From sequence record MH791409.1: 64,000 nucleotides of DNA. The stretch is one strand, 5' to 3'. This DNA is from Escherichia phage EcWhh-1. The stretch's first letter is position 1. Every line of letters begins with the position of its first letter. Below the pieces are notes generated by a model. The model worked only from the letters and a program-made list of their open reading frames with translations. It had not been told where the DNA came from and ran no database searches. This document shows positions 21,923 through 59,160 of this stretch, one piece after another. The position numbers were made by a program, and so were the translations under genes.

Positions 21923-21950
21923 TTTATTCTCCAGTTTGTTTTCGTATTAT

Positions 21951-21993
21951 TTGGTACAGGTCTATAATAACACAACCTGTACCAAAGTAAAAC
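21951..21993 (-). promoter_or_regulatory. early promoter/stem-loop cassette (PeSL-like)
   Basis: TTGGTACAGG...CCTGTACCAA inverted repeat enclosing the -10; upstream region near-identical to that of the next gene. Confidence 0.55.
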
Positions 21994-21995
21994 AT

Positions 21996-22328
21996 TTATT
22001 TCACAACATTCCAATTTTTCATATCAAGTTTACCAACTTTTTTCATCTGAGCAATCAGACGTTCAGCGCGTGTACGGGCATTAACGTAATAGAATTCACC
22101 AATTTTGTTTTCTTCAATACGACCAGTAATTACAGTTTTCAGTTCATAAATCCAACCTGTAAAGAAGTTGTGAAGCTCGATGGTAAATGTGAAATCAGTA
22201 CCCATACCTTCTGTTGTTTCAACTTCGATGATATCACCTTCAACTGCAGTCAGGACCCACATGGTTTCTTGATATTCACCGTTGAAACATTTAGCTTTAA
22301 CAGATGCATTCAGGTTTACAGTTTTCAT
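21996..22328 (-). CDS. hypothetical protein (promoter-cassette gene)
   Basis: 110 aa; 5-prime leader and RBS near-identical to 21923-21960. Confidence 0.55.
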   Translation of the reverse strand: MKTVNLNASVKAKCFNGEYQETMWVLTAVEGDIIEVETTEGMGTDFTFTIELHNFFTGWIYELKTVITGRIEENKIGEFYYVNARTRAERLIAQMKKVGKLDMKNWNVVK

Positions 22329-22356
22329 TTTATTCTCCGGTTTGTTTTCGTATTAT

Positions 22357-22399
22357 TTGGTACATGTCTATAGTATCATGCCTACCGGAGATGTATACC
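22357..22399 (-). promoter_or_regulatory. early promoter/stem-loop cassette (PeSL-like)
   Basis: GGTACATGTCTATAGTATCATG core; CTCCGG/CCGGAG stem includes the RBS. Confidence 0.55.
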
Positions 22400-22426
22400 C
22401 TTTTTTAAAGATTTAGAAACAAAAAT

Positions 22427-22444
22427 GGGACTCCGAAGAGTCCC
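22427..22444 (-). terminator. hairpin GGGACTC-CGAA-GAGTCCC
   Basis: 7-bp stem, UUCG loop on the - transcript, after the small basic ORF. Confidence 0.55.
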
Positions 22445-22449
22445 ATAAC

Positions 22450-22611
22450 TTATGCAATAACTTTACCGAAGCAAGCAGCATCTGCACGCAATACTGCACG
22501 AGCACGAGCTTGAAGCTTATCAACTACCTGATTGATACGCTTGTTAGACGCACGCTTGTAACCAGCGCGTTTAGAGGTTCCGTCAACTACTTTAACTTCT
22601 TTCTTAGCCAT
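22450..22611 (-). CDS. small Lys/Arg-rich protein of unknown function
   Basis: 53-aa ORF (MAKKEVKVVDGTSKRAGYKRASNKRINQ...) not in the track; flanked by a terminator and a 350-nt ORF-free region. Confidence 0.4.
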   Translation of the reverse strand: MAKKEVKVVDGTSKRAGYKRASNKRINQVVDKLQARARAVLRADAACFGKVIA

Positions 22612-22964
22612 TTTTTAAATCTCTTAAATTAGGATGCAGGACTTATTGGCACTGCCTGCGCAAGCCCTCAAGGGGAACATAGGTTTTAGATATTTAACGA
22701 CAGGATAACCGTAAACCTCGTCATCATAGCTCTTATCTGTTGCACACCGTTAGCTTAAAGGTTCCGGGTTCGATTTCTCGAGGATAAGATATATACTGAT
22801 GGATATAGGCCTTGAGGCGTACTCCCGATTGGCCATCACCTCGGGGTAGCATGCACTTGCCGCTATAAAATACCATTCAAGAGGTACACCGTAAAACTGC
22901 CGGGGGTCTTAAAACTATAATGATTCGCAAATCATTAATCAGACAGTTCGACGGCTCCTCGATT

Positions 22965-23213
22965 TTACTTCAGGGTAATAATAAAATGACGTACTGCTTT
23001 ACGAGCTGCTGAAGCCAAAGGCTTAGCATATTTCAGTTCATCTTTTGCTTCCAATTCAGCAGCCAGAGTAGCCTGAGCAGGATTAAGATGTTTGAAATAA
23101 CGCAGGATTTCCAGTGCTTCGGCTTCAACATCAATAGATGCGCCGTAGTTTTCGTGACCGTTGTTCCAAGCGTTGCGTTGCAGTTCAAGAGCGTGATTCA
23201 GATGTTTGTTCAT
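22965..23213 (-). CDS. rIII: rIII lysis inhibition accessory protein
   Basis: from internal ATG (MNKHLNHALELQRNAWNNGHENYG...) about 82 aa, matches T4 rIII. Confidence 0.85.
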   Translation of the reverse strand: MNKHLNHALELQRNAWNNGHENYGASIDVEAEALEILRYFKHLNPAQATLAAELEAKDELKYAKPLASAARKAVRHFIITLK

Positions 23214-23373
23214 TTTAAATTCTCGATTCGAGATAAAGATTGGTGGACACGTTCTTCTGAATTTCACTTCCTTTCGGCAAGTCTCTCAGTTGTAGTCCAC
23301 CGCTTAGGATTAGCTAACCCCATACACCAGCAAAGCTCTGTATGACATTAGCCAATCCATATTATTATTTATA

Positions 23374-23697
23374 TCACTTATAAAGACACGGAATAGCTTT
23401 ATAGTGGCAGGTAACGAATTTCTGTTTAATTTCTTTAGGCTGCTTAATACCAAGTGCAACTAAAGGATGAGGCACGTTAGCAATCTTACCAACAGGAAGT
23501 GGAGTCAAATCGCCTACTTCACAAAAACCTTCAGGGACATCAGGTCCTACAGAATAAATTTCACAAAGTTCAGGGATTTCACCTTGATGAAGTTTGCCAA
23601 TAACGATACCAGATGCAGTAGTTTCTTCATCACCAGCTTGTTTTGGTTCGGAAACGAGAATAACATATTCTCCGACCGCTTTAATAGGAAGTTCCAT
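23374..23697 (-). CDS. 31: co-chaperonin gp31 (GroES-like)
   Basis: 107 aa; matches T4 gp31 ([12 protein letters not shown]...[15 protein letters not shown]). Confidence 0.92.
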
Positions 23698-23755
23698 ATT
23701 TAATCCATGTTGTTTTGTTGATAGATTAATAATAACACGCTATTCTTAAAGCATA

Positions 23756-24055
23756 TTACAGGACAAGCAGAGTTTCAGTCTGAAGCCCATTAATAGAAAT
23801 CAGTTTATCGAAACGGAATGAACGCCAGTCATTAACCTTGGTATCAAATACACGAATATAATTAACCGGTTCTTTATTAGCTTCTGGGCCCGGGGCTTGA
23901 ATTTCTTTATACGGGAGGAGGTCCAGGTCGCGAGTACAAGTCATACGACGAACGCTACCATCCGCCTTTTCAAACAGAACTTCGTGAGTACCCACGGACA
24001 GAATAGTCTTGGCTTTTTCACGGAGTCGAATAGTTTCTTGTTCAGTTAAAATCAT
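23756..24055 (-). CDS. hypothetical protein (31.1 position)
   Basis: 99-aa ORF. Confidence 0.5.
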   Translation of the reverse strand: MILTEQETIRLREKAKTILSVGTHEVLFEKADGSVRRMTCTRDLDLLPYKEIQAPGPEANKEPVNYIRVFDTKVNDWRSFRFDKLISINGLQTETLLVL

Positions 24056-24057
24056 AA

Positions 24058-24291
24058 TTATTCCAGAATAGTTTTAATAGTGGTTGCATTACGCTCTTTT
24101 AGAGCTCTTAGTAGGCTATGGCAATTATCAAGAATAGGCACCGTTTTGTATTTCATGTTGGCATAGACCCACTCAGATTTATAGTACGATTTCCATCGAG
24201 AGAAAAAGTACTTTTTGTATTCTACCGAATAGGCTACTAAGCTTTCACCTTTTGAATTCAGACCTGAAAACTTCACTAATCGAAATTTCAT
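24058..24291 (-). CDS. hypothetical protein (31.2 position)
   Basis: 77-aa ORF. Confidence 0.5.
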   Translation of the reverse strand: MKFRLVKFSGLNSKGESLVAYSVEYKKYFFSRWKSYYKSEWVYANMKYKTVPILDNCHSLLRALKERNATTIKTILE

Positions 24292-24836
24292 TATTCACCA
24301 CAATAGTTTTGAATTGATTCCCAGTTCAGAGAACGGAGGCCAGTACGGTTATACTGGATAACTTCGATGCCTGATTCACGGAGGATATCATCCCATCCTT
24401 CAGGATTTCGGTCATAGAGTTCAGCATAAACCAGCGTTTTAATTCCGGACTGCGCAATAGACTTAGCACAATCTGCACACGGGGACAGTGTCACATACAT
24501 CGTAGCGCCGTCAATAGAACTTCCTGTACGAGCTGCGAACAGGATAGCATTCAGTTCGGCATGGATTTCATTTTTGGATGACCATGCGGCATGAGCCATA
24601 CGATGTTCTTTAAGAAGAATCGATTTATGGGTCATTCGTGCTGGGTCATACACAACACGAGTCCAGTCCTGTTCCACTGCATGGTCACAACAGTTAACAC
24701 CACCGGACGGAGAACCATTATATCCTGTAGAGATAATGCGACCATTCTTTTCGATAACGGCACCCACTTTCCATGAACAACATTTTGATTCCTGAGAAAT
24801 CAGATAGGCAATCTGAAGATATGTACTTGCTTTCAT
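24291..24836 (-). CDS. cd: dCMP deaminase
   Basis: 181 aa; zinc deaminase motifs HAE and PCADC. Confidence 0.88.
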   Translation of the reverse strand: MKASTYLQIAYLISQESKCCSWKVGAVIEKNGRIISTGYNGSPSGGVNCCDHAVEQDWTRVVYDPARMTHKSILLKEHRMAHAAWSSKNEIHAELNAILFAARTGSSIDGATMYVTLSPCADCAKSIAQSGIKTLVYAELYDRNPEGWDDILRESGIEVIQYNRTGLRSLNWESIQNYCGE

Positions 24837-25066
24837 TCTACGAACACTCGCTGCGCTTCGACCAGACCATCGGAACCAAGTTTTAACTGGGTAATCTGGC
24901 CGCCATTTTTAGGATTAACGATAACCAATACCGCACGTGGTGATTCCTGAATTACTCGCAGAGTTGCATCAGGAAAACGTACAGAAACCTTATTAATCAG
25001 AGCCTGAGCAAATTCTTTAACTTTAACTTGGAACTGCTCTACAGTAATAGGTTGTTCGCTCAGCAT
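24833..25066 (-). CDS. hypothetical protein (cd.1 position)
   Basis: 77-aa ORF overlapping the cd start. Confidence 0.5.
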   Translation of the reverse strand: MLSEQPITVEQFQVKVKEFAQALINKVSVRFPDATLRVIQESPRAVLVIVNPKNGGQITQLKLGSDGLVEAQRVFVE

Positions 25067-25620
25067 TAGATGGTCTCCAACTTAAGTTGTTTGGTAGTGG
25101 TAGCTTGGGTAACGTCGCCCTTAACAATATAACACACTTGTTGGAACGAACTGGTCAAAAGCTCTTCGGCTTGACGGTCGGCTTGTTCCTTTGTGTTATG
25201 GTGAGAATGGACTTCAATCTTACCATTTTTAACAATAAGCACTTTCCAATCAGCAGTGGCTTTTACTGGTTTAGGTTCCGGCTTTACGGCAATACTCGTA
25301 GTAGCCAGTGGACGTACCACTTCAATAAAGTATTCGAATTCATGGCCAAAAAAGCCTGTTGAGTTAAAAAGAACACCATTTGCATCATCAGGATTACCTG
25401 TGATTTTGCTCGGGTCGACAAACATCATCTCGTCATATACACGAATTCGGCTTACACGCTCACGCCCATTATGGTAATCAATTTCAACTTCAAACGGGTT
25501 CATACCTACATACTTAGCGAAAGCCGTATTGAGGCCATAAGCGCCGTTATTAGTGAATTTGTTTTTAGCGTATTCACCAGTGAACTTATAAAGCTTACCC
25601 TCTTCAAAGAACTTACTCAT
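25066..25620 (-). CDS. hypothetical protein
   Basis: 184 aa with its own early promoter. Confidence 0.55.
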   Translation of the reverse strand: MSKFFEEGKLYKFTGEYAKNKFTNNGAYGLNTAFAKYVGMNPFEVEIDYHNGRERVSRIRVYDEMMFVDPSKITGNPDDANGVLFNSTGFFGHEFEYFIEVVRPLATTSIAVKPEPKPVKATADWKVLIVKNGKIEVHSHHNTKEQADRQAEELLTSSFQQVCYIVKGDVTQATTTKQLKLETI

Positions 25621-25636
25621 TTCGATTTCCTCATGT

Positions 25637-25678
25637 GTTGGTAGGACTACTATACTACAGTCCTACCATGATGTAAAC
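25637..25678 (-). promoter_or_regulatory. early promoter/stem-loop cassette (PeSL-like)
   Basis: GGTAGGACT...AGTCCTACC stem around TATAGT; GTTTAC -35 on the - strand. Confidence 0.55.
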
Positions 25679-25680
25679 AC

Positions 25681-25959: not shown

Positions 25960-25966
25960 AATTACC

Positions 25967-26371: not shown

Positions 26372-26372
<1 letters not shown>
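26175..26372 (-). CDS. hypothetical protein
   Basis: 65-aa ORF abutting the pseT stop. Confidence 0.45.
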
Positions 26373-27590: not shown

Positions 27591-27594
<4 letters not shown>

Positions 27595-28073
27595 ACACCA
27601 AGCTCCTTATAAAGTTCTTCGCGACAGGTTTTCAGAAGTTTACCACTTTCATATGCTGATTTTTCATCAACATCACCTAAAGCCACAGCTTGCTGCATCT
27701 GGCCGTGGCGTTTAGCTGCGTATTCAAAACTTTTTACTAGCTCACGAATACGTTCTTTTTCATTGTACTCTTCAATGAATTCAGGGTATTCCCAAACAGG
27801 TCGCATCATACGATACCACTGTTGGATGGTAATATAATTACTTCCGTTCAAATTAATAATCTGTGAAGGCTCAATAGACCCTGGAGCATAAAAAGTTACC
27901 TGTCTTACTACATCAATACCGTCCACAATAGCCCAAGCAAAATCGAAAGTTGCCTTCTTTTCAATAGGAGTGCTTGCACAGGACCCTAGTTTAAGGAGCT
28001 TTTGTAATACAGGAGATTTAATACTTGAAATGTATTCAGGCTTAGCCACAAAACTGTTATCACGTAATGTCAT
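27591..28073 (-). CDS. hypothetical protein
   Basis: track ORF trimmed to the ATG with GAGG RBS just downstream of a promoter cassette. Confidence 0.5.
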
Positions 28074-28094
28074 AATAATTTCCTCAATTTTTAT

Positions 28095-28137
28095 AATCCG
28101 TAGGAGCATTATACTCTGCTCCCAAGAGTTTGTAAAC
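28095..28137 (-). promoter_or_regulatory. early promoter/stem-loop cassette (PeSL-like)
   Basis: GGAGCA...TGCTCC stem; GTTTAC -35. Confidence 0.5.
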
Positions 28138-28881: not shown

Positions 28882-29369
28882 TTGGTAATAATCTCGATGA
28901 TGTCATCACGTGACAGGGAGTTGATAAGAACCGTTTTAGGATTTTCACACTGAATTTTGTATGTTTCAAACATCACACACAATTCTTCAGCGGTATGGTA
29001 AGGGCTGGAAATGCCAAGGCGATTAAACTTGTCACTTAATGGGTCGCAAATCAAATAGAATGTGATTCCTGCGATTTTAACATTAGGCTGACTGATATTA
29101 ATGAATACCTCAGCATCATACTTAGAAAGGTTGTTTTGGAGAAACTCTACCATAGAATTAACTGCTTCAGGCATGGCCTCACGCTTTTCTTCTGCATAAC
29201 GGGTAGAATATTCTTTTTGCTTGATTTTCTTTTTAGCATTTTTAGCTAAAGTAACCCGAAGATCGGTAAGGTAACCTACCGCACGAGAACCTTTGAAAAC
29301 TTGGATACCGTCAGTAGAATCACCAAAAGCTTTAACAACCATTTCGTTAGTAATCATTTGCATATTCAT
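28869..29369 (-). CDS. alc: Alc-like protein (synteny only)
   Basis: 166 aa (T4 Alc 167 aa), between rnlA and the spanins. Confidence 0.5.
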   Translation of the reverse strand: MNMQMITNEMVVKAFGDSTDGIQVFKGSRAVGYLTDLRVTLAKNAKKKIKQKEYSTRYAEEKREAMPEAVNSMVEFLQNNLSKYDAEVFINISQPNVKIAGITFYLICDPLSDKFNRLGISSPYHTAEELCVMFETYKIQCENPKTVLINSLSRDDIIEIITKCLN

Positions 29370-29384
29370 TTTGTTTTCTCCTCA

Positions 29385-29428
29385 TTAGTTGGTAAGTCTA
29401 TACTAACATGTCATGAGGAGATGTAAAC
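29385..29428 (-). promoter_or_regulatory. early promoter/stem-loop cassette (PeSL-like)
   Basis: CTCCTCAT...ATGAGGAG stem pairs the RBS/start codon; GTTTAC -35. Confidence 0.55.
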
Positions 29429-32248: not shown

Positions 32249-34504
32249 TTAAAGCTTACAAGCTGCACAATCATCGGCTTTAGGAGTTTCGATTTCGTAA
32301 TCGTCGGTACCAGAGCCGTCACGGGTGTTATGGTAGTAAAGGTTCTTACCACCAAAGTACCAGAAATATAACAGGTCATCAAGCATTACTGACATAGGAA
32401 CTTTTCCTTTCTCATAGTTCTGAGGGTCGTAATACGTATTCGCTGATGCTGATTGGCAAACCCATTTCAACATAATTGCTACTTGGGTAAGATAAGGTTT
32501 ATTACCTTTCTTAGCGAGGCTCCAAGCGTAATCATAAAGGCCTTGGTTATGTTCTACATTAGGAACTACCTGTCGGAAGTTACCTTCTTTAGATTCTTTA
32601 ATACTTACCGGGCCGCGCGGAGGTTCGATACCGTTTGTAGAGTTGGAAACCTGGCTGCTTGATTCACACGGCATAAGTGCTGATAATGTGCTATTACGGA
32701 TGCCATGTTTAGCCAAGTCTTCCCGCAACGACGCCCAGTCACAAACATAGTTAGGGGCTGCGATTTGGTCAATCTTTTTATTGTACCAGTCGATAGGAAG
32801 CTCGCCTCGAGACCATTTAGTGTCTGAATAATACTCGCAAGGTCCTTTTTCTTCGGCCAACTTGATTGATGCTCTGATAAGTCCATACTGTAATCTCTCA
32901 AACAGTTCATGAGTTAAATCGTTTGCGTCTTCATAAGAAGCAAAGTTGCTTGCCAGCCATGCTGCGTAGTTAGTAACACCGACACCCAAGTTACGACGTT
33001 TCTTAGCCTTCAGAGCTTCAGGAACAGGATAATCTTGGTAGTCTAACAAGTTATCAAGTGCACGTACCTGTACTTCAGCAAGTTCGTTGATTTTGTCTTG
33101 GTCTTGCCAATCAAAGTTATCTAATACGAATGCAGACAGAGTACACAACCCGATTTCGGCGTCAGGACTATTCACATCGGTAGTCGGGATAGCAATTTCA
33201 CAACACAGGTTACTCTGGCGAATAGGAGCCTTTTCACGAATAAATGGTGTGAAGTTGTTAGTGTTATCAACGAACTGAGGATAAATTCGTGCAGTGCCTG
33301 AACGTTCGGTCATAAACAATTCGAAGAGGTCGCGTGCTTTAATACGTTTCTTACGAATACTAGGGTCTTTTTCAGCAGCTTCATACAATTCACGGAAACG
33401 TTCTTGGTCTTCGAAATAAGAATAATAAAGCTCGCCACCCATTTCATGAGGACTAAACAGGGTAATGTAATCATTTTTACCGAAACGTTCCATCATCAGG
33501 TCGTTTAACTGGATTCCGTAGTCCATATGACGAATACGGTTCTCATCGACACCTTTGTTGTTTTTCAGAACGAGCAGATTTTCAACTTCCAAATGCCAAA
33601 TAGGATAATAAGCAGTAGCAGCGCCGCCACGGATTCCACCTTGTGAACATGATTTAACAGCAGTCTGGAAATGTTTCCAGAATGGAATAACACCGGTATG
33701 TTTGACTTCACCCATGCCAATACGAGAACCTTCAGCACGAATCATACCAACGTTAATACCAATACCTGCACGTTTAGAAATGTATTCAATTATTGAGTTT
33801 GCAGTTTTGTTAATAGATTTCAGTGAGTCACCTGCTTCAATAACAACACAAGAACTAAATTGACGGGTTGGAGTACGTGCACCAGCCATAATAGGAGTAG
33901 GCAACGAAACCTGACGAGTACTTACAGCGTCATAAAAACGAATAATATGTGCTAAACGGTTACCCGGCTCATCTTGGTGTAAGGCCATACCAATACACAT
34001 GATAGCGAACTGAGGAGTTTCATAGATTTTACCGGTTGTTTTATCTTTAACCAGATATTTCTCTTTCAGCTGCATTGCGCCAGCATAAGTCAATTCGAAA
34101 TCGCGTTCATGCTTGATATGAGATTCTAAGAAAGTAATTTCTTCTGCAGAATATCGAGATAGCAATTCTGGGTCATATTTACCTTCGTTAACACAATAGG
34201 AAATATGGTCGATAAAACTACGTGGTTCAAACTGACCGTAAACTTCTTTACGCAGCGCAAACATCAATTCTTTTGCTGCTACATATTGGTAATCAGGTTC
34301 TTCAACTGAAATAAGGTTAGCCGCAACTTTAACAGTCAGATTCTGGATATCTTTGGTAGTCATACCATCACGAAGGTGGGGTTTAATTTCTTCGTATAAT
34401 TCATAAGGGTCGATTTGGGTTCCTTCACAGCCCCAAGTCAGAACTTTAATAATTTTTTGTGCGTCAAAATCTTGGGATACACCACTACTCTTTTGTACTT
34501 GCAT
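32249..34504 (-). CDS. nrdA: ribonucleotide reductase alpha subunit
   Basis: 751 aa (T4 754 aa), class I RNR large subunit. Confidence 0.92.
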   Translation of the reverse strand: MQVQKSSGVSQDFDAQKIIKVLTWGCEGTQIDPYELYEEIKPHLRDGMTTKDIQNLTVKVAANLISVEEPDYQYVAAKELMFALRKEVYGQFEPRSFIDHISYCVNEGKYDPELLSRYSAEEITFLESHIKHERDFELTYAGAMQLKEKYLVKDKTTGKIYETPQFAIMCIGMALHQDEPGNRLAHIIRFYDAVSTRQVSLPTPIMAGARTPTRQFSSCVVIEAGDSLKSINKTANSIIEYISKRAGIGINVGMIRAEGSRIGMGEVKHTGVIPFWKHFQTAVKSCSQGGIRGGAATAYYPIWHLEVENLLVLKNNKGVDENRIRHMDYGIQLNDLMMERFGKNDYITLFSPHEMGGELYYSYFEDQERFRELYEAAEKDPSIRKKRIKARDLFELFMTERSGTARIYPQFVDNTNNFTPFIREKAPIRQSNLCCEIAIPTTDVNSPDAEIGLCTLSAFVLDNFDWQDQDKINELAEVQVRALDNLLDYQDYPVPEALKAKKRRNLGVGVTNYAAWLASNFASYEDANDLTHELFERLQYGLIRASIKLAEEKGPCEYYSDTKWSRGELPIDWYNKKIDQIAAPNYVCDWASLREDLAKHGIRNSTLSALMPCESSSQVSNSTNGIEPPRGPVSIKESKEGNFRQVVPNVEHNQGLYDYAWSLAKKGNKPYLTQVAIMLKWVCQSASANTYYDPQNYEKGKVPMSVMLDDLLYFWYFGGKNLYYHNTRDGSGTDDYEIETPKADDCAACKL

Positions 34505-34520
34505 AATTTCCTCAATATGT

Positions 34521-34562
34521 TAGGTTCTACATCTATAATAACATAGAACCTGTTAAGCATGG
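34521..34562 (-). promoter_or_regulatory. candidate MotA-type middle promoter with stem-loop upstream of nrdA
   Basis: - strand ATGCTTAAC (MotA-box-like) then TATTAT inside GGTTCTA...TAGAACC. Confidence 0.4.
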
Positions 34563-34570
34563 ACTGATAT

Positions 34571-34990
34571 TTATAGGTCTTCTAATGAGAACGTATCTTT
34601 GAAAAGTTTGTTAACAACCAGGGCTATCACATCCCCATGACAGTCCTTAGGTTTACAGGTGCACGCTATTCGCATACCTCTAAGGGTTTCAAGGTGTTCT
34701 CTTTTAATTTCACCCGATTTTATTTTAGCAATAAAGTATTCTTTAAAGTTCTTGATGTTTTCCTCACGGGTCCCATCTTTAAATGGATTACCCCACATGG
34801 TCCCGCGTTGGATATTGACATCAAAATCTTCTTTATACTTGTTAACAACTCTGCAGACTCTCATTATAACACCAAATTCAGTCCGACCATAATAACCAAA
34901 AACAGAGTACAGATTATTTGAATTTTCATACAGCCATTTTAGCCTTAATGGTAGGGTGTGATTCGTAACCAATGAGTTTAAAATCTTCAT
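34571..34990 (-). CDS. DUF4326-like protein (GNPF, CTC...CHGD motifs)
   Basis: 139-aa track ORF overlapping td by about 65 nt; real start probably internal (about 34864); motifs recalled from DUF4326. Confidence 0.45.
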   Translation of the reverse strand: MKILNSLVTNHTLPLRLKWLYENSNNLYSVFGYYGRTEFGVIMRVCRVVNKYKEDFDVNIQRGTMWGNPFKDGTREENIKNFKEYFIAKIKSGEIKREHLETLRGMRIACTCKPKDCHGDVIALVVNKLFKDTFSLEDL

Positions 34991-36918: not shown

Positions 36919-37158
36919 TCACGCTTTCTTAGCAACTTTCCAGTCGGCTTTAAATTGGTCAATATCAGAATGGTGAATCCAGAAACCAGATGAGCTACCA
37001 TCTTCATAAAGAGGACAACCATCACACTCATCTTTCCAACCCATTTCACACAAAGCTTGTTCGGCTTTTTCCAGAGCTTCCGGATTGCTACCTTGGATTG
37101 TGAAGTACCATTTGCCTTTAACTTCAGAATCTTTAATTGATTCGCGTTGTAATTTCAT
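36919..37158 (-). CDS. hypothetical Cys-containing acidic protein
   Basis: 79-aa ORF with promoter cassette upstream. Confidence 0.5.
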   Translation of the reverse strand: MKLQRESIKDSEVKGKWYFTIQGSNPEALEKAEQALCEMGWKDECDGCPLYEDGSSSGFWIHHSDIDQFKADWKVAKKA

Positions 37159-37172
37159 TTTATTCTCCTCAA

Positions 37173-37214
37173 GTTGATAAGGCTATAGTATCACTACCAT
37201 AGCCTTAGGTAAAC
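37173..37214 (-). promoter_or_regulatory. early promoter/stem-loop cassette (PeSL-like)
   Basis: AAGGCTAT...ATAGCCTT stem around TATAGTATC; GTTTAC -35. Confidence 0.55.
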
Positions 37215-37216: not shown

Positions 37217-37444
37217 TTATTTTTGAATTAAGCCCATATAAAATTTATTGTCTTCTGGGTGCATACCATCGCAATATTCATCAGCCATAAAGCGGGTAAG
37301 GTCTTCAAGAGGACCTTGGACTTCAATTTGCATACTACAGAATTGTGTGTCTTTGATATAAGTCATAGTCAAAGAAGGATAACGATTACGGATAACTTCG
37401 TAAGTGTATTCAAAATCAACGATATCAATATTAACCTTAGCCAT
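37217..37444 (-). CDS. hypothetical protein
   Basis: 75-aa ORF between two promoter cassettes. Confidence 0.55.
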
Positions 37445-37457
37445 TTTATTTTCCTCA

Positions 37458-37501
37458 TTAGTTGATAGGTCTATAGTATCATGCCTATAGACCTTGTAAA
37501 C
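37458..37501 (-). promoter_or_regulatory. early promoter/stem-loop cassette (PeSL)
   Basis: TTGATAGGTCTATAGTATCATG core shared with six or more other copies. Confidence 0.6.
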
Positions 37502-38161: not shown

Positions 38162-38516
38162 AGGTAGCTTTAATCAAGGCAACAACTTCTGCCGCATTTT
38201 TGTGGTTTACCTGTACATGGATAGTTTGGGTATCAACGGCAGGAGCATCGCCATCAACTTCCAGGAAGTGACAGAATTCCCATTCACCGAGTTCAAAGTA
38301 CTCATCAGAATCACCCATACTATTCAGGATGGTGCCATCTTTCATTTCAACTTTTTCAACAAAATAATCACCTTCAATATAACGCATATCCAAGACTTTG
38401 AAGGAATTGCCATGTTGTTCCATCAACCTGACCATGCACGAATTATCATCAGGACTAAAAGCGATGAATTGTTTTTTAGCAGCAGGGTCTAATACGTAAA
38501 ATTTACCAATTTCCAT
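38151..38516 (-). CDS. hypothetical protein, paralog B
   Basis: 121 aa; paralogous to 37766-38161. Confidence 0.6.
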   Translation of the reverse strand: MEIGKFYVLDPAAKKQFIAFSPDDNSCMVRLMEQHGNSFKVLDMRYIEGDYFVEKVEMKDGTILNSMGDSDEYFELGEWEFCHFLEVDGDAPAVDTQTIHVQVNHKNAAEVVALIKATFGI

Positions 38517-38530
38517 TTTTATTTCCTCAT

Positions 38531-38574
38531 GTAGTTGATAGGTCTATAGTATCATGTTTAAAGGCATTGTAAAC
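38531..38574 (-). promoter_or_regulatory. early promoter/stem-loop cassette (PeSL)
   Basis: GTAGTTGATAGGTCTATAGTATCATG...GTAAAC. Confidence 0.6.
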
Positions 38575-38590: not shown

Positions 38591-38610
38591 GGGAAGACCG
38601 AAGTCTTCCC
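38591..38610 (-). terminator. hairpin GGGAAGAC-CGAA-GTCTTCCC after gene 32
   Basis: 8-bp stem, UUCG loop on transcript, 17 nt after the gp32 stop. Confidence 0.65.
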
Positions 38611-40835: not shown

Positions 40836-41783
40836 TTAATAAAAATCAGCTACTGTAGCAGTTAGTTTAGACAAACCCGATTTAACGAAATAAGGATAAA
40901 CTTTAGATTTCGAAGGTTTGTTATACGTATTATATCTTTCAGTAATTAAAGCAACAATATCATCTGGAATAAAGTCCATATCAATTAAGATTTGGTTTTC
41001 ACAGAAACGTTCATATTGTTCCTCAGTAAGAAGTGTTTTAATTATATCATGGTCATAATAATTCAGAGCAATTGCTTCAAGTTCCTTAGCACGAGTGCTA
41101 GGAGTACGTTCACCTTCAACCATTGTCAACCAATAATCACCACGAACTTTAATACTTGCAACGTTATCCTTGCGGTCACCTTTAATAACCTTAGTCACAC
41201 AATCAAGCAGAGCATCACCAGATTTTGTTTTGACGAATTTTTTCTGCATTGGAGACCATTGTTTTACACCAGGGAATTTATGAAGTTGGGTAAAGTCACC
41301 ATCAGAAGAACCAATCATAACCGGATGGCCTTTAGCCGTAAGGATACGAGTCAACACAGCAATATGGTCATCGGCCTCGATTGTATCGATATTCATAACA
41401 ATATAAGGCATATTTTGTTCCAGTTCATCCACAATAATATGCATTGCAGTGAATAAGCCTTCCCAATCAAATGGTGATTCGTCACGTGCCTTAGCACGGT
41501 TTTTCTTATAATAAGAAGAATAACGACGACGCCAATAACCTGATTTAGAGTTATCAACACAAATGATTAGTTGGTTGTAACCTTGTTTTTTAAAGTCTTT
41601 AATGTTTTTCTTGATTGAATTCAAGACGAGATGTCGAAGCATTGCTGTTGTTACTTTAGGAAATCCAGCGTTTTCACCAAATTCTTGGAAGGCTGCCGCC
41701 ATAATGATTTGGCTGAAATCCAGGAGTAAAAATCCATCTTTTTGTTGGTCTTCTTCAGGAAGTAAAAAATCTAAATCGTTCAT
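40836..41783 (-). CDS. rnh: RNase H (FEN-1-type 5-prime nuclease)
   Basis: 315 aa; matches T4 RNase H (SGYWRR...YKKNR, EADDHIAVL, SSDGDFTQLHK). Confidence 0.88.
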   Translation of the reverse strand: MNDLDFLLPEEDQQKDGFLLLDFSQIIMAAAFQEFGENAGFPKVTTAMLRHLVLNSIKKNIKDFKKQGYNQLIICVDNSKSGYWRRRYSSYYKKNRAKARDESPFDWEGLFTAMHIIVDELEQNMPYIVMNIDTIEADDHIAVLTRILTAKGHPVMIGSSDGDFTQLHKFPGVKQWSPMQKKFVKTKSGDALLDCVTKVIKGDRKDNVASIKVRGDYWLTMVEGERTPSTRAKELEAIALNYYDHDIIKTLLTEEQYERFCENQILIDMDFIPDDIVALITERYNTYNKPSKSKVYPYFVKSGLSKLTATVADFY

Positions 41784-41799
41784 ATGAACCTCTGTCCAA

Positions 41800-41843
41800 T
41801 TAGTGTAGAAGGTTATTATATCATGGCCCTGGAAGAAGTAAAC
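41800..41843 (-). promoter_or_regulatory. early promoter with stem-loop upstream of rnh
   Basis: GTTTAC -35 then extended -10 on the - strand. Confidence 0.45.
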
Positions 41844-52531: not shown

Positions 52532-52803
52532 AAATTGGAGGTATACATCATTAGATAACGATGTATATCTTCATACCCTTCATTAAATTGCTCAATAAGA
52601 GTATCACGTTCATCTTCAGTTAAAGACTTAAAGAGTTTATTAAAAGATAGGCCGTTAAGTTCCTTTCCATGTTCATTACGAATACCCAACTCATTCAAAA
52701 AGGCAATAAACTCATCACGGCGCTGCATGATGTCTTCACAATCCGTTTTAATCAAAATGGAAACAATAGTAGCAATTTCGGAAACGATTTCAATTTTAGT
52801 CAT
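52528..52803 (-). CDS. asiA: anti-sigma70 factor AsiA
   Basis: 91 aa; matches T4 AsiA (IAFLNE...EQFNEGYE.I.RYL.MYT). Confidence 0.9.
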   Translation of the reverse strand: MTKIEIVSEIATIVSILIKTDCEDIMQRRDEFIAFLNELGIRNEHGKELNGLSFNKLFKSLTEDERDTLIEQFNEGYEDIHRYLMMYTSNF

Positions 52804-52833
52804 AATATTCTCTTCAATTCAGTACGACATTAT

Positions 52834-52873
52834 CTGATAAGGCTATAATAACATATCCTTATGGATTGTAAAC
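52834..52873 (-). promoter_or_regulatory. early promoter/stem-loop cassette upstream of asiA
   Basis: AAGGCTATAATAAC...GTTTAC on the - strand. Confidence 0.55.
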
Positions 52874-53388: not shown

Positions 53389-53876
53389 TAGTAAAGGTCC
53401 TCAGAGTAAAGTTCTTTTTCACTACCACCACGTTCAATACGAACTTGATTAGCATATGTTGCAATAATCATTGCTTCTTCGCGAGTCCAATAGTTTGAGT
53501 ATTGGTCGATAAATCCTTGGTCATCACCGCAAACATGCTCTGACACAAGTTTATCACTTACTTGGTCAAGCACTTCTGCCATATCTTTTGAATAATGACG
53601 AGCTCCTGGAATAACCAGAGTCCCACCGTCTTTTAACTTAAAGCGATTGGCTGCGCATACAATTCGACGTTGGTATTTTTCATTGTTATTCCAATGAGCA
53701 ATCTGCCAACAGATTTCAGGAACCTCTTCCAAAACATCCTCTTCCGAATATTCAGCGTAATCACCGTAGGCCTGTAATTTAGCTGCTAGACTTTTAGGAG
53801 TCTCACGAGAAAGGGCTTTATCTAATAAAGCCAATTGGGCTTTAAAAGACAATTCTTTAGCTTTTAATGGGTTCAT
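53388..53876 (-). CDS. hypothetical protein
   Basis: track ORF 53388-53885 trimmed to the ATG overlapping the upstream stop. Confidence 0.5.
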
Positions 53877-54202
53877 TTGAACCATCCTTTAACACGTTGC
53901 CATAAAGTTTTCTGTTGAGCTTTATTAACACCAATTGAACGAATAACCGGTTGTGATTCCTGGTATTCTTTGTAGTCGGCTTTATAGACTTCATAAGCGG
54001 CAGGAACAAAGGTGCTGATTGCGGCCATGAAATTCTTGCGGATTCCCATAGAAGCTTCAGAACCGCCACGGATGATTAAGTATTTACCAGCTTTAATCTT
54101 AACAATAGTGCCGAGATAAGCACCATGGTACCAAATATCCCAACCTTCTTGAGTAGGTTCTGCACAACGACGAAGTTCATTAACAATATTCAGCTTGTTC
54201 AT
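53873..54202 (-). CDS. hypothetical protein (motA.1 position)
   Basis: 109-aa ORF between motA and the arn block. Confidence 0.5.
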
Positions 54203-54216: not shown

Positions 54217-54852
54217 TCAGTTAATTGCGTTGGTTACGGTTTTGATAACTTCAGATGATACGTTTTGGAAGTCGATATAAGTATTCTTACCACCAGTCTT
54301 AATCTTAACATCAAGATTCAAAGAAGTAAACACTTGTTTTTCTTTATCGGTCATATTATAACCGAAGATACGCATCATTCCGTCACGACGGACTTCAATT
54401 TGACGAATGCCATTGGTACGTTTAGCGAACCGAACTTCAAGGTTGCTACGGTTTTCAGCAATTTCACGAATCTCGATACGGTCTTCTAATAAAGCTTTAA
54501 CTTCATCAGCCAATACCACCATTTCAGGAGTAACACCACGTGAACTGCGTGTTTTACGTTTTTCCAACATCTCTGGAGCATTTTCAGAAGCGAACAGATC
54601 AGCAGCTTTTTGAACTAAGTCCATTGCTTCACCTGTAGCCACCAGTCCATCACCAGATTTTTCGATGAATCCTTTCTTAATCAATACACCAATGTTAGAG
54701 TTAACTACCGCTGCACTAAATTGTTCACTCAGGGCTTCACGGACTTCGCCTGAAGTGATGAAGTTGTTCTTGATGATATGTACTAAGATAGAAGCCGTTT
54801 TTTCATTCAGGACGTCTTCAGAAGCTTTGATGATATAAGTAATTTTAGACAT
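54217..54852 (-). CDS. motA: middle transcription activator MotA
   Basis: 211 aa, same length as T4 MotA, with N-terminal identity as recalled. Confidence 0.9.
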   Translation of the reverse strand: MSKITYIIKASEDVLNEKTASILVHIIKNNFITSGEVREALSEQFSAAVVNSNIGVLIKKGFIEKSGDGLVATGEAMDLVQKAADLFASENAPEMLEKRKTRSSRGVTPEMVVLADEVKALLEDRIEIREIAENRSNLEVRFAKRTNGIRQIEVRRDGMMRIFGYNMTDKEKQVFTSLNLDVKIKTGGKNTYIDFQNVSSEVIKTVTNAIN

Positions 54853-54875
54853 TTTAATCTCCGATAACCATTTAT

Positions 54876-54915
54876 TTGATAGGTCTATAGTATCATGTTT
54901 AAAGCAGAAGTAAAC
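54876..54915 (-). promoter_or_regulatory. early promoter/stem-loop cassette (PeSL), copy flanking the 75-aa ORF
   Basis: TTGATAGGTCTATAGTATCATGTTTAAAGCAGAAGTAAAC; near-identical direct repeat of 55219-55259. Confidence 0.6.
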
Positions 54916-54954
54916 TTTATTTTGAGCTCTTTTTCAAGAGCTCTAATAAAGTAC

Positions 54955-55182
54955 TTACTTAATGTTCAGATTACGAACTTCGATTTCGTCTTCAGGGGCA
55001 AAATCAAACTGTTTGAATTCTGTGTCACCTTTAAATTTAAAAATCATTGTGAAGAAAGTCAGAACACCGGGTTTTTCTTCACGAACTCCACATATATCAT
55101 ATTCAATACCATCTACAACCAGTTTGTTAGCAGTCAGAGCATTTTTAGCTTTAACGATTTCGTTTTCGATTTTAAATTTCAT
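54955..55182 (-). CDS. hypothetical protein in a promoter-flanked cassette
   Basis: 75-aa ORF bracketed by two near-identical promoter cassettes. Confidence 0.55.
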   Translation of the reverse strand: MKFKIENEIVKAKNALTANKLVVDGIEYDICGVREEKPGVLTFFTMIFKFKGDTEFKQFDFAPEDEIEVRNLNIK

Positions 55183-55218
55183 TTTTGTATCTCCGGGTTG
55201 TTTGTTTCAGTTCATTTA

Positions 55219-55259
55219 TTTGATAGGTCTATAGTATCATGTTTAAAGCAGATGTAAAC
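55219..55259 (-). promoter_or_regulatory. early promoter/stem-loop cassette (PeSL)
   Basis: TTGATAGGTCTATAGTATCATGTTTAAAGCAGATGTAAAC. Confidence 0.6.
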
Positions 55260-55283
55260 ACTTTTTTGCACTAAACCCAAAAA

Positions 55284-55299
55284 GGAACCCGAAGGTTCC
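55284..55299 (-). terminator. hairpin GGAACC-CGAA-GGTTCC after gene 52
   Basis: reverse complement of the hairpin at 46993-47008, so UUCG loop on the - transcript. Confidence 0.6.
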
Positions 55300-55400
55300 T
55301 TACTTTTTAAAGTGGGCCGCTATTAAACCTATAGCTAAGCCTGTTGCCAGGCCTAGGATAACAGCAAAGATACAGAGTAGCAAGAACTCGACTCCAAGGC

Positions 55401-56780: not shown

Positions 56781-56784
56781 AATT

Positions 56785-56925
56785 TTACCATACTAGTGAA
56801 TGAATAACCATAATAACATCGGAAATAAAAAGCACAACTTGGATAAGACCGAATATTACTCCATAATACAGTGCTACCAATAAAGCAGCAAGGGCCACCG
56901 AGTAGCCCAAGATTTTCTTAATCAT
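56785..56925 (-). CDS. small hydrophobic membrane peptide (52.1 position)
   Basis: 46-aa ORF ([27 protein letters not shown]...) not in the track; stop 4 nt before gene 52. Confidence 0.45.
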   Translation of the reverse strand: MIKKILGYSVALAALLVALYYGVIFGLIQVVLFISDVIMVIHSLVW

Positions 56926-57079
56926 TTTTAATCATCTTAAGTAAACCGACAAAAGTAGAAAGAACCCAGCCAATAAACAGAAAACTTAAGAATACCGGAC
57001 CAGGGGTCCACACACCTAAAAAGAAGCAAACCGAACAGACTATAGCCGTAATAAGTTCAATAAAAACTATGATAATCAT
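56918..57079 (-). CDS. small hydrophobic membrane peptide Y (ac-like position)
   Basis: 53-aa ORF (MIIIVFIELITAIVCSVCFFLGVW...); start/stop overlap neighbours. Confidence 0.45.
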   Translation of the reverse strand: MIIIVFIELITAIVCSVCFFLGVWTPGPVFLSFLFIGWVLSTFVGLLKMIKND

Positions 57080-57089
57080 ATTTTCCTCA

Positions 57090-57228
57090 TTAGCGTCCGA
57101 AGACGCCTTTAGTTTTAAGATTGTTACGATAGAACTGCATCACATGTTCGTTATGGGAATTACTCCGTAATACAGTGTTACTAATAAAGAAGAAAGGGCT
57201 ACCGAGTAACCCAAGATTTCTTAATCAT
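57090..57228 (-). pseudogene. chimeric remnant: 5-prime part of a 52.1-like gene fused out of frame to a 3-prime stp copy lacking a start codon
   Basis: 57161-57228 is about 88% identical to 56861-56926; 57090-57165 encodes ...[21 protein letters not shown] with CGG in place of ATG; junction at shared GAGTAAT. Confidence 0.55.
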
Positions 57229-57374
57229 TTTTTGGTAAAGGCCTGTAGAATCAGAACAAATGCCAATATGAATTGTGGAATGGCCTGAGAAATGACCGAA
57301 GTTTCACCCGTAGTAATAGTCCAAATACCTAGATAAGTCCAAATACCCGCAGCAAAACCTTGTAAAATATTCAT
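57225..57374 (-). CDS. small hydrophobic membrane peptide X (ac-like position)
   Basis: 49-aa ORF (MNILQGFAAGIWTYLGIWTITTGE...) with GAGG RBS overlapping the stp stop. Confidence 0.45.
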   Translation of the reverse strand: MNILQGFAAGIWTYLGIWTITTGETSVISQAIPQFILAFVLILQAFTKK

Positions 57375-57381
57375 ATTTTCC

Positions 57382-57462
57382 TCAAGGGCGTCCGAAGACA
57401 CCAGTTAATTTCAGATTATGACGGTGCCATTGCATCACATGTTCGTTATGGAAATTACTCAT
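57382..57462 (-). CDS. stp: Stp peptide (activator of host PrrC anticodon nuclease in T4)
   Basis: 26-aa [29 protein letters not shown] vs T4 Stp [26 protein letters not shown] (recalled); ATG overlaps ndd stop. Confidence 0.75.
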
Positions 57463-57911
57463 TAGTAAGCCTGCAGAACGAATTTGAAGTTATCGGCCAA
57501 CATACGGTTCATTTCTTCCAGTGTCTGAAGGTCTGAACTATGATTGCGAGTGAAAGCCATTGCAATTTGACCTTTACCAAAGCCTGTAGTCAGAGGTTTC
57601 ATTTTAGAAGCTGGCACATAAAGAACTTCATACACCACACCATTCACTGCCATAGTGCGAGCTGATTGAGAACGTTTCTTACGGATGTTAGCCACAATAC
57701 CATCAAGACCTTGAGCTGAACGTTGGTTACCGACATAAAAGCGAGCGGCTACGACACGAGAATCTGCTTCACCTTTAACAAAGAAGTAGAAGCCTGGCTG
57801 AGCTGAGATTTCTTTAGAAGGCTTACCATTTTGGTATTCGCCATTCTTAACATAAGCAACAGTAGTAGCACCAGCAGACAGAACGTTACCGCGAGTCATA
57901 TAAGTATTCAT
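57462..57911 (-). CDS. ndd: nucleoid disruption protein Ndd (synteny)
   Basis: 149 aa (T4 Ndd 151 aa), immediately upstream of stp. Confidence 0.65.
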
Positions 57912-57946
57912 ATCAATTTCCTCAGTAGATTAATGTTTTGTTATCC

Positions 57947-57989
57947 AGTCAACGAGAACCATTATAACATGATTCTCGAGGTTGTAAAC
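57947..57989 (-). promoter_or_regulatory. early promoter/stem-loop cassette upstream of ndd
   Basis: CGAGAACC...GATTCTCG stem around the -10; GTTTAC -35. Confidence 0.55.
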
Positions 57990-58333
57990 TATTTTTGTAG
58001 CTGTTCTAAAATAAATCCGCTCGTATAAAAGGACGCATTATATACCTTATTCAGTGGGTTCAAAGCGCGTCCATAGGTATCACGTAATTCTTTGATAACA
58101 TTTTCGTAACTCACATAGTAAGCACTACGATAGTCAGGGTCCATGCTCATACGGAATTTGATGAATCGATAAAACCCTGTATCCGGGTCTTGAACGAAAA
58201 CGAAATCCGCGCTTGCCATAGTTTTTGAATCTAACCCAGTAACCAGTTCTTGATTAAAGGCTGCCAATGCCTCTTTAAGACTGAGTTGCTCAAAGAACAT
58301 AACCTTAGCATTACCAAAAAATACTTTAGACAT
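57989..58333 (-). CDS. hypothetical protein (ndd.x position)
   Basis: 114-aa ORF. Confidence 0.5.
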   Translation of the reverse strand: MSKVFFGNAKVMFFEQLSLKEALAAFNQELVTGLDSKTMASADFVFVQDPDTGFYRFIKFRMSMDPDYRSAYYVSYENVIKELRDTYGRALNPLNKVYNASFYTSGFILEQLQK

Positions 58334-58347
58334 AATAATTTCCTCAA

Positions 58348-58614
58348 TTATTCAGAGTCGACTTCTTCTGATAATTCCATCAGTTCATCAACCGTGAAAC
58401 ACTCGGTATTATTTTCAATAGCAAAACGCTTTTGATAAAAAGGATAATCCAAACAGTTTTCAGTACGAATGGGACGCTCACTATTATCCATCAAAGGAGA
58501 AATGCGAATCAATTGTTGGCCGTTACCTAATACAAATTTTTCACCAACTGCGACATCTTTAAAAAGTTTCATAATATTTTCCTCAGAAGTTAAAGAATAC
58601 ACGTACATGGTCAA
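58348..58614 (-). CDS. hypothetical protein (ndd.x position)
   Basis: 88-aa ORF. Confidence 0.5.
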   Translation of the reverse strand: MTMYVYSLTSEENIMKLFKDVAVGEKFVLGNGQQLIRISPLMDNSERPIRTENCLDYPFYQKRFAIENNTECFTVDELMELSEEVDSE

Positions 58615-58694
58615 TCATAAAAACTATTGGGAAAATGCTCAATACCATTAACAACACAAACATGTTCCAAATTGCTTTAAGTAAGTTTTTCATA

Positions 58695-58738
58695 ATCATC
58701 TCCATTAGTTGATAGGTCTATAGTATCATGTCTAATGG
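58695..58738 (-). promoter_or_regulatory. early promoter/stem-loop cassette (PeSL)
   Basis: TTGATAGGTCTATAGTATCATG core; CTCCATTAG...CTAATGGAG stem includes the RBS of a roughly 38-aa hydrophobic ORF. Confidence 0.55.
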
Positions 58739-58838
58739 AGATGTATACTGATTTATGCCAATTTCCACAACAATAAACTAAAACATACGCAAATCACTGG
58801 GATACAGGCTATCCAAATAAGGCACCACATTTTGCTAC

Positions 58839-59099
58839 TCATAATACTATCTCTTTTATTTCCATAAACCCATCATTCAGTGCATGGCGGAGTTCATAAT
58901 GGATATCTATACCATCGACATTATCTAATTTACCGTCGATAAGTTTTTGTAAATCTTTTTTTGACGCTATCAAAGGACGAAGAAATCTACAATTAGAAAG
59001 GGATAATTCCGTAATAACATCTTCACCTGATGCATCGTACATTGCGGCAACAACTTTACCTGTAACTTTGTGTTTAGCGTAATATAATTTGATATCCAT
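58839..59099 (-). CDS. hypothetical protein
   Basis: 86-aa ORF with promoter cassette upstream. Confidence 0.5.
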   Translation of the reverse strand: MDIKLYYAKHKVTGKVVAAMYDASGEDVITELSLSNCRFLRPLIASKKDLQKLIDGKLDNVDGIDIHYELRHALNDGFMEIKEIVL

Positions 59100-59115
59100 T
59101 TTGTTTTCCTCTCAT

Positions 59116-59160
59116 GTAGTTGATAGGAAGATAGTAACACCATCCATGGTGTATGTAAAC
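59116..59160 (-). promoter_or_regulatory. early promoter/stem-loop cassette (diverged PeSL)
   Basis: GTAGTTGATAGGAAGATAGTAACACC...GTAAAC. Confidence 0.5.

Follow-up and report, generated by a model that had tools for sequence, protein, structure and literature searches.

The window analysed here is the whole 64,000-nt stretch of Escherichia phage EcWhh-1 (sequence record MH791409.1), a Dhakavirus phage (JS98-like T4-type coliphage) whose early genes lie on the minus strand, and the subject of the analysis is a short early-promoter cassette that recurs between these genes. The range flagged in an initial annotation of the window (21923-59160) covers two small-gene regions, 30.x–rIII–31–cd–pseT–alc–nrd–td–frd–32–rnh and asiA–arn–motA–52–ndd–denB, and the late tail-fibre block (41.9-52.5 kb, plus strand) lies between them. 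Gene annotation was carried over from phages IME281, JS98 and UP19. Identity to phage IME281 is 100% between about 35.0 and 63.6 kb and identity to phage UP19 is 100% between 26.3 and 28.7 kb, while the remainder is 90-97% identical to each relative. The window is a fine-scale mosaic, and a match to the whole window was absent from the phage collection records.

The cassette and its copies

The cassette has the consensus A-rich UP region, GTTTAC, N14-15, TGnTAnnAT, leader (C/T)TA(T/C)CAAC, Shine-Dalgarno (SD) sequence and ATG. Copies were first gathered by a seed scan and then scored with a two-block weight matrix. There are 19 copies in the window, all on the minus strand and all with GTTTAC-N14/15-TGnTAnnAT; none was found on the plus strand or in shuffled sequences. 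The recurring early-promoter cassette reported in the initial annotation is therefore real, with a slightly different count: about 18 copies had been given for 21923-59160, where 16 were found, the other three lying beyond that range at 63982, 13512 and 1419.

The 22-mer core CATGATACTATAGACCTATCAA has exactly five exact matches (expected 0), all on the minus strand, at 37462, 38535, 54876, 55220 and 58709, and each of the five intervals that had been given as examples holds one. The motif GTTTAC N17 TGATACTAT, taken literally, yielded no useful matches. The right gap is N14 (GTTTAC N14 TGATACTAT), and the N17 had been misplaced, since GTTTAC and the -10 hexamer, TACTAT, are 17 nt apart. With at most one mismatch, GTTTAC-N14-TGNTANNAT matched 11 times on the minus strand against 0.63 expected. 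The weight-matrix search set 18 minus-strand sites (at least 16 bits) apart from the rest of the window in a sharply bimodal distribution (next site at most 12 bits; no plus-strand site of 10 bits or more; none of 14 bits or more in shuffles), a separation that is partly circular because the matrix was trained on the same 18 sites. Copy 63982 was kept out of the training and scored 11.7 bits.

One cassette makes up one entire intergenic region of about 60-80 nt. The 22 nt located 5' of the -35 are 74% AT, compared with 61% window-wide, and the stop codon of the upstream gene usually lies inside TAAGTGTTTAC or TAGTTTAC. The 3' end is formed by a GGAG/GAGG SD and ATG in 18 of the 19 copies, the exception being 54331, which is a promoter only. 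Seventeen copies fall in 19.4-41.9 and 52.5-64 kb, and none in the tail-fibre block.

The leader (C/T)TA(T/C)CAAC (about +2 to +12, e.g. 37462-37472) is kept in early promoters of many T4-like genera, and its conservation extends past what the -10 requires. Two MotA-box (middle) promoters in the window, 23697-23756 and 34504-34571, share the -10/leader core of the early cassettes, and the MotA-box promoter before nrdA has an embedded 8-bp hairpin (AGGTTCTA/TAGAACCT). Such promoters are analogous to the elements called PmSL in phage nt-1.

Each copy was folded as RNA from the -35 to the ATG and compared with 200 dinucleotide shuffles, which is the basis of the z values given below. In all structured copies the promoter spacer forms the 5' arm. 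Its partner in class A spans the end of the -10 and the first transcribed bases (e.g. AGGTCTATAG/CTATAGACCT, copy 37501), and in class B, with three copies, the 3' arm is the SD region. Copies are named by their higher window coordinate, so that 29367-29428 is copy 29428.

1358-1419, minus strand: copy beyond the flagged range; terminator hairpin GGGCC-GCAA-GGCCC just upstream (1446-1459)
13452-13512, minus strand: copy beyond the flagged range, with a small palindrome in the spacer
21920-21992, minus strand: cassette of the 30.7-like gene (21557-21922); -35 TTTTAC, TGTTATTAT; class A, 12-bp embedded hairpin TTTGGTACAGGT/ACCTGTACCAAA of spacer with -10/+1 region, dG -18.8, z -4.05
22326-22398, minus strand: cassette of gene 30.8 (21996-22328); class B, spacer TCTCCGGT pairing with SD region ACCGGAGA, z -3.18
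25618-25678, minus strand: cassette with class A hairpin GGTAGGACT/AGTCCTACC, z -2.32; flanks invariant
28071-28137, minus strand: cassette with class A hairpin GGGAGC/GCTCC(T), z -2.87; downstream gene 27591-28073
29367-29428, minus strand: cassette of alc; class B, spacer TCTCCTCAT pairing with SD region ATGAGGAGA, z -4.16; rnlA stop codon overlaps the -35
37156-37214, minus strand: cassette of frd.1; class A hairpin TAAGGCTAT/ATAGCCTTA, z -3.94
37442-37501, minus strand: cassette of frd.3; exact 22-mer core, class A hairpin AGGTCTATAG/CTATAGACCT, z -3.16
38514-38574, minus strand: cassette of frd.2; exact 22-mer core, without embedded hairpin
41781-41843, minus strand: cassette of rnh, in the divergent gap opposite gene 34; without significant hairpin
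52801-52873, minus strand: cassette of asiA; weak hairpin ATAAGG/CCTTAT; -35 inside the end of the upstream open reading frame (ORF)
54302-54331, minus strand: early-promoter match, not a full cassette, within motA towards its 3' end and some 100 nt ahead of the arn.4-like gene
54850-54915, minus strand: cassette of motA; exact 22-mer core; downstream one of the pair around the 75-amino-acid ORF (ORF-A)
55180-55259, minus strand: cassette of ORF-A; exact 22-mer core; upstream one of the pair
57909-57989, minus strand: cassette of ndd; class A hairpin CGAGAA/TTCTCG, z -1.86; upstream stop codon overlaps the -35
58691-58748, minus strand: cassette of a 36-amino-acid ORF; exact 22-mer core; class B, spacer ATCTCCATTAG pairing with CTAATGGAGAT, SD included, z -5.16
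59097-59160, minus strand: cassette with a small palindrome, CACCATGGATGGTG, in the spacer
63932-63982, minus strand: weaker copy (11.7 bits) beyond the flagged range, with a GC hairpin immediately upstream

The upstream regions of the genes at 21557-21922 and 21996-22328 had been described as near-identical over 60 nt. This is correct from the -10 to the ATG (45/48 identical) and does not extend to the -35 and spacer (10/25).

Hairpins within and upstream of the promoters

The z value was below -2 in eight of the 19 copies (58748, 29428, 21992, 37214, 22398, 37501, 28137 and 25678), and a weaker embedded structure was seen in three (57989, 59160 and 13512). The description of the cassette as usually embedded in an inverted repeat holds for these eight strong and three weak cases, where the pairing is not random, and fails for the other eight. 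The arm sequences vary between copies. For spacer and downstream sequence of the same copy, the longest stretch of Watson-Crick pairs had a mean of 6.7, against 4.6 when spacers and downstream sequences were re-paired (0/2000 permutations, p < 1/2000). The initial annotation had also stated that the repeat often pairs the ribosome-binding site and start codon of the gene below, which is overstated: the SD is paired in 3/19 copies (58748, 29428 and 22398), and the start codon essentially never. Leaders folded from the predicted +1 are unstructured (dG about 0). Because the 5' arm precedes the start of a copy's own transcript, formation of the embedded hairpin requires either read-through RNA or single-stranded DNA.

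Where no hairpin is embedded, a terminator-like hairpin mostly precedes the copy (55259, 38574, 1419, 63982 and 54915). Such upstream hairpins, present with five or six of the remaining copies, have a UUCG or GNRA loop and usually a T-run. The hairpins at 55282-55301, 38591-38610, 22427-22444 and 1446-1459 resemble Rho-independent terminators in being GC-rich, with UUCG/GNRA loops followed by T-runs. Copies 41843, 52873 and 54331 have neither a significant embedded hairpin nor an upstream one. In addition to the hairpin at 1446-1459, the following were located:

22427-22444, minus strand: classic terminator hairpin GGGACTC-TTCG-GAGTCCC, then a T-run; upstream of copy 22398
38591-38610, minus strand: terminator hairpin GGGAAGAC-TTCG-GTCTTCCC, then TTTTT; adjoins copy 38574 on its upstream side
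54924-54943, minus strand: hairpin GAGCTCTT-GAAA-AAGAGCTC, without T-run, between ORF-A and copy 54915
55282-55301, minus strand: terminator hairpin AAGGAACC-TTCG-GGTTCCTT, then TTTGGG; upstream of copy 55259

Pairing between spacer and SD was also found outside the window. Promoters upstream of alc were taken from 43 T4-like loci whose Alc identity falls as low as 27%, and complementarity between spacer and SD region is present in most lineages, through different sequences (arm pairs UCUCCUCAU/AUGAGGAGA, AUCCUCAUUUUGUUG/CAACAAAAUGAGGAU, UCUCCAUUUGGUU/AACCAAAUGGAGA, CCUCGUUUGUU/AACAAACGAGG and AUCCUCAUCAG/CUGAUGAGGAU, for example). In an alignment-free test the spacer/leader duplex averaged -15.4 kcal/mol for own pairs, compared with -8.1 kcal/mol for cross-pairings, and reached -12 kcal/mol or lower in 26/34 own pairs but in only 17% of the cross-pairings. 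RNAalifold applied to 12 alignable alc-upstream sequences, a subset selected by equal loop length, gave 12 pairs, four of them with compensatory changes. With a MAFFT alignment of all 33 alc-upstream promoters it returned no consensus structure, because the 3' arm shifts between lineages. Some lineages have a class A hairpin in the same promoter instead, so that the hairpin variants look interchangeable.

The pairing is not confined to alc. Among 172 distinct early-promoter contexts, a spacer duplex was present in 42% compared with 8.6% after re-pairing, and the SD was masked in 22% compared with 7.3%. As judged by covariation, a subset of T4-like early promoters carries an anti-SD sequence in the spacer. 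No description of spacer/SD pairing in early promoters was found in the literature searched; that search did not cover the older T4 literature, and the novelty of the pairing is uncertain.

Gene exchange at the cassettes

The window was aligned to 13 Dhakavirus genomes, and every break of at least 100 bp was listed. IMG/VR holds only about six Dhakavirus genomes. One of its contigs, 2974741249 (155,101 bp), was left out of the breakpoint statistics; it shows recurring gaps of about 100 bp against the window and other relatives, which are probably an assembly or masking artefact. Genes between cassette copies had been proposed as candidates for recent exchange, and two of them, each with a cassette at both ends, lie at the loci that had been singled out:

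54955-55182, minus strand: ORF-A, 75 amino acids, PHROG 10955, function unknown
21996-22328, minus strand: gene 30.8 (Pfam Phage_30_8)

Exchange was found at both, and the genes flanked by cassettes were not invariant across the 13 relatives.

ORF-A lies between near-identical copies, as had been noted: 55259 and 54915 are identical at 46 of 47 positions from the -35 onward. The gap between 52.1 and motA, which these copies and ORF-A occupy, has at least five alleles among the relatives. It is empty, with a single cassette, in QL01, NC-G and LQ5, and holds ORF-A in the window, IME281, B-01, Ec2 and UP19, ORF-B in JS98, CLBP2 and g170473, ORF-C with a different downstream cassette in IME341 and 04086, and ORF-B and ORF-C in tandem in IME08. 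The three ORFs fall into separate, unrelated PHROG families, none with a known function. The junctions lie in the TATAGACCTATCAA core or at the SD-ATG, GGAGAT(T/A)(A/C)AAAATG. In LQ5 the motA ATG is fused directly to the ORF-B leader, in UP19 the motA leader is a chimera of both leaders, and the end of ORF-B carries a remnant, AGACCTATCAA. The copies at this locus in IME08 and g170473 have derived substitutions in common, a pattern compatible both with gene conversion and with a cassette duplicated upon insertion.

ORF-A occurs with at least 95% protein identity in 137 phage records, of which many are genomes of T4 size. It is also found outside the genus: in the Tequatrovirus DalCa it has the same location, between 52.1 and motA. 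Nucleotide identity between DalCa and the window along this segment is as follows:

gp52: 70%
first promoter, -35 to -10: 61%
leader (the untranslated region UTR-A): 95.8%
ORF-A: 98.2%
hairpin and second cassette: 91%
motA: 59.5%

The limits of the module are therefore placed in the conserved leader just past the -10 and at the SD-ATG of the next cassette. On the strength of these identities, the ORF-A module has moved between phage genera.

In CLBP2 and IME341 the place of gene 30.8, between copies 22398 and 21992, is taken by a divergent allele of 122 amino acids from the same Pfam family, and homology returns exactly at ATGAAAA and at the next GTTTAC. The alternative allele (CLBP2 5829-6191; also in IME341) has 80-95% protein identity to about 190 other phage records and is only about 38% identical to the T4 protein. 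These identities suggest that it was imported from another T4-like lineage.

Junctions of insertion, deletion or replacement fall in cassettes at five loci, namely 52.1–motA, 30.8, 28137, 58748 and 59160. The 160-amino-acid gene behind copy 28137 (27591-28073) does not occur in IME281 or LQ5, and JS98, CLBP2 and Ec2 have another sequence in place of its 5' part. At copy 58748 relatives have insertions, either at the cassette or just upstream of it. Behind copy 59160, QL01 and LQ5 insert a 75-amino-acid ORF that is flanked by a 46-bp repeat of the 3' half of the cassette.

Differences of gene content were also seen at other junctions. A 326-bp gene lies between arn.3 and arn.4 in JS98, CLBP2, UP19, IME341, NC-G, IME08 and LQ5 and is missing from the window (53873-53881) and IME281; the stop and start codons overlap at this junction, which has no promoter cassette. 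A 94-bp direct repeat with about 80% identity (57072-57165 and 57367-57460) lies upstream of two small membrane-protein genes, each unit with a hairpin, GGCGTCTTCGGACGC, and an SD. Since units are gained or lost among relatives, this repeat is a second, cassette-independent hotspot of insertion and deletion.

A gap of 354 nt between 30.9 and rIII (22612-22964) is GC-richer and apparently non-coding. It has no match in Rfam, a search of which gave no match for the whole window, and folds no better than shuffles (z -0.78). In IME281, IME341, LQ5 and QL01, 44 bp stand in place of 22728-22864 inside this gap.

Relation to known elements and proposed function

The likeness to promoter-early stem-loop (PeSL) elements proposed in the initial annotation is supported by the anatomy of the copies, which fits the published definition (PMC2839356; PMC4122927, Fig. 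3 legend). PeSLs of phages RB49 and phi1 consist of an upstream stop codon, an AT-rich region, a sigma-70 promoter, a stem-loop, an SD and ATG (Arbiol 2010, PMC2839356). They are concentrated in hyperplastic regions, and promoter and terminator activity as well as mini-circles between neighbouring copies have been shown for them (PMC2839356). PeSLs were later described in PST/T4, with the promoter TTTACW-N17-TAYWAT, and in nt-1/KVP40 (Comeau 2014, PMC4122927). For the JS98 group these papers mention only 'PeSL-like sequences' near gene 43 (PMC2839356, PMC4122927).

At the level of sequence, the window cassettes have all the defining features of PeSLs. The order of parts and the location in hyperplastic small-gene regions are the same, and the stem-loop lies mostly between the promoter boxes or over the -10, as in RB49/phi1. 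In both systems an ORF lying between two copies can be missing from a close relative or exchanged for another, and partial ('half') copies occur at junctions, such as the 46-bp repeat at copy 59160. The cassettes differ from PeSLs in that the promoter is of the T4 type (TTTACA..TAnnAT with TG) rather than a perfect TTGACA/TATAAT, and that the stems vary from copy to copy and lack the G(n)/C(n) form. Moreover, in some copies the spacer pairs with the SD, some 30 nt further downstream, an arrangement absent from the descriptions in the PeSL papers.

The cassettes have the UP region, GTTTAC -35, extended -10, 17-nt spacing and early-gene strand in common with the T4 early 'uber' promoters (PMC2988021), to which they add about 15 conserved nt past the -10 and a spacer complementary to downstream sequence. 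T4 is also known for hairpins that sequester the ribosome-binding site and contain an internal promoter (e, soc, 49, 25, 26, I-TevI and segB; also mobE of Aeh1; PMC2988022). As in these genes, a hairpin holds the SD and an internal promoter, so that the gene's own predicted transcript lacks the 5' arm and would be translatable, and read-through RNA would be masked. There, however, the promoters and genes are all late (PMC2988022), whereas the window copies have early sigma-70 promoters and serve early genes (alc, 30.8 and the 36-amino-acid ORF). The logic in the window is thus mirrored, and translation would be confined to the early phase of infection. The class B copies fall outside the described T4 late set because their internal promoters are early sigma-70 and not late (TATAAATA).

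These results suggest, with a probability of roughly 0.78, that the copies are self-contained PeSL-type early-gene expression cassettes, i.e. insulated promoters that also serve as recombination landing pads. Host RNA polymerase would fire these T4-type 'uber' sigma-70 promoters right after infection, as their consensus indicates. Most copies would add an insulating stem-loop, either a classic terminator upstream or a hairpin embedded in the promoter. On read-through RNA the embedded hairpin would stop just short of the SD in class A and take in the SD in class B. The gene would then be expressed from its own promoter and not by upstream transcription, an effect on termination or translation that we infer from the observed geometry and covariation. 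RegB cleavage of GGAG, which is known to be blocked by structure (PMC3014915), may also play a part. Homologous recombination, which is very active in the phage, would use the copies as landing pads because 45-60 nt are near-identical between them. In the genome comparison, genes flanked by two copies were deleted, replaced, stacked in tandem and moved between genera, with junctions within the cassette.

Several observations weigh against this interpretation. With a junction counted if at least one of the 13 relatives has a break there, breaks were found at 7/14 cassette junctions and at 17/52 other minus-strand junctions, a difference that is not significant (odds ratio 2.1, one-sided Fisher p=0.19). 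Most single-gene insertions and deletions are at tightly packed junctions free of cassettes, the inserts carry no cassette, and the large mosaic switches (IME281 at about 35.0 kb; the UP19 block at 26.3-28.7 kb) lie away from cassettes. On the structural side, 8/19 copies have no significant embedded structure, the position of +1 is assumed, and the embedded hairpins have no U-tract, the 3' arm being followed by AUCAAC... Stem mismatches, which bear on action as RNA or as DNA, are G-T in six cases and A-C in two (p=0.29). The portal idea is further limited by seven cassettes with invariant flanks (25678, 29428, 37214, 37501, 38574, 52873 and 57989). The cassettes demonstrably serve the exchange of non-homologous inserts, yet they are one route among several and not the main one.

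For RB49/phi1, Arbiol et al. proposed that the stem-loops terminate or attenuate upstream transcription, and the embedded hairpins described here could act in this way instead of as translational masks. One RB49 PeSL stem-loop cut lacZ expression as strongly as rrnB T1 (PMC2839356), and a classic terminator substitutes in the window where the embedded hairpin is absent, suggesting equivalent roles. For class A, whose hairpins leave the SD untouched, this is a serious rival. However, no U-run follows the 3' arm of any embedded hairpin, and these are therefore not canonical intrinsic terminators, unlike the upstream hairpins. The SD itself forms the 3' arm in class B and is the part conserved across genera, and termination would also silence promoterless genes downstream. 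As an account of the embedded hairpins, termination or attenuation is somewhat doubtful.

It is unlikely that the copies are just strong early promoters with a constrained leader, the inverted repeats being by-products and the recombination incidental. The -35, TGn and -10 do fit the T4 early consensus (PMC2988021), and many T4-like genera have a -10/leader core of similar sequence. The lack of significant boundary enrichment and the seven cassettes with invariant flanks also speak for this reading. The spacer of a promoter, however, is normally free to vary, and here it complements each copy's own downstream sequence and co-varies with the SD region across genera. Exchange junctions also fall within cassettes at five loci, and the transferred module has cassette motifs on both sides.

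Action of the inverted repeats on DNA, as cruciforms or single-strand hairpins that become recombination hotspots through a nuclease, a recombinase or a replication stall, appears improbable. Arbiol et al. speculated on a protein that recognises the stem-loop (PMC2839356), and exchange junctions do lie inside or adjoin the repeats. In contrast, an embedded inverted repeat is lacking in 55259 and 54915, the two cassettes with the most exchange, and the well-structured copies 25678, 37214, 37501 and 29428 have invariant flanks. The arms share no conserved sequence for a protein to recognise, and the tolerance of G-T in the stems points in the direction of RNA, although not significantly. A reading of the many short, near-identical copies with inverted repeats as autonomous miniature mobile elements (of the miniature inverted-repeat transposable element type) that insert themselves is highly implausible and was dropped on anatomy, since they lack terminal inverted repeats, target-site duplications and a transposase nearby, all lie on the coding strand exactly between stop and start codon, and have an internal inverted repeat that differs in each copy.

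Within the interpretation of the copies as insulated early-gene cassettes, it is possible, and proposed here tentatively, that the embedded hairpins are a widespread translational insulator of early genes in T4-like phages, permitting translation only from mRNA of the gene's own promoter, which would be active in the first minutes after infection. About one-fifth of early promoters hold an anti-Shine-Dalgarno sequence in their own spacer. If they work in this way, such a gene would be silent on read-through, middle or late transcripts, and its GGAG might be shielded from RegB. This architecture would make a gene module self-sufficient and independent of position, which would explain why the cassettes travel between genomes.

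What is new beyond the literature reached is the clean allelic series together with an inter-genus transfer whose ends are cassette motifs, and the covariation of the spacer anti-SD. The natural evidence is unusually clean, and it extends the PeSL concept to the therapeutic coliphages of the JS98 group. The exchange data flag a set of mobile, probably host-adaptive small genes, namely ORF-A, ORF-B, ORF-C, the alleles of 30.8 and the 160-amino-acid gene behind copy 28137. The covariation of spacer and SD provides a hypothesis for how the densely packed early genes of T4-like phages may stay independent of upstream transcription.

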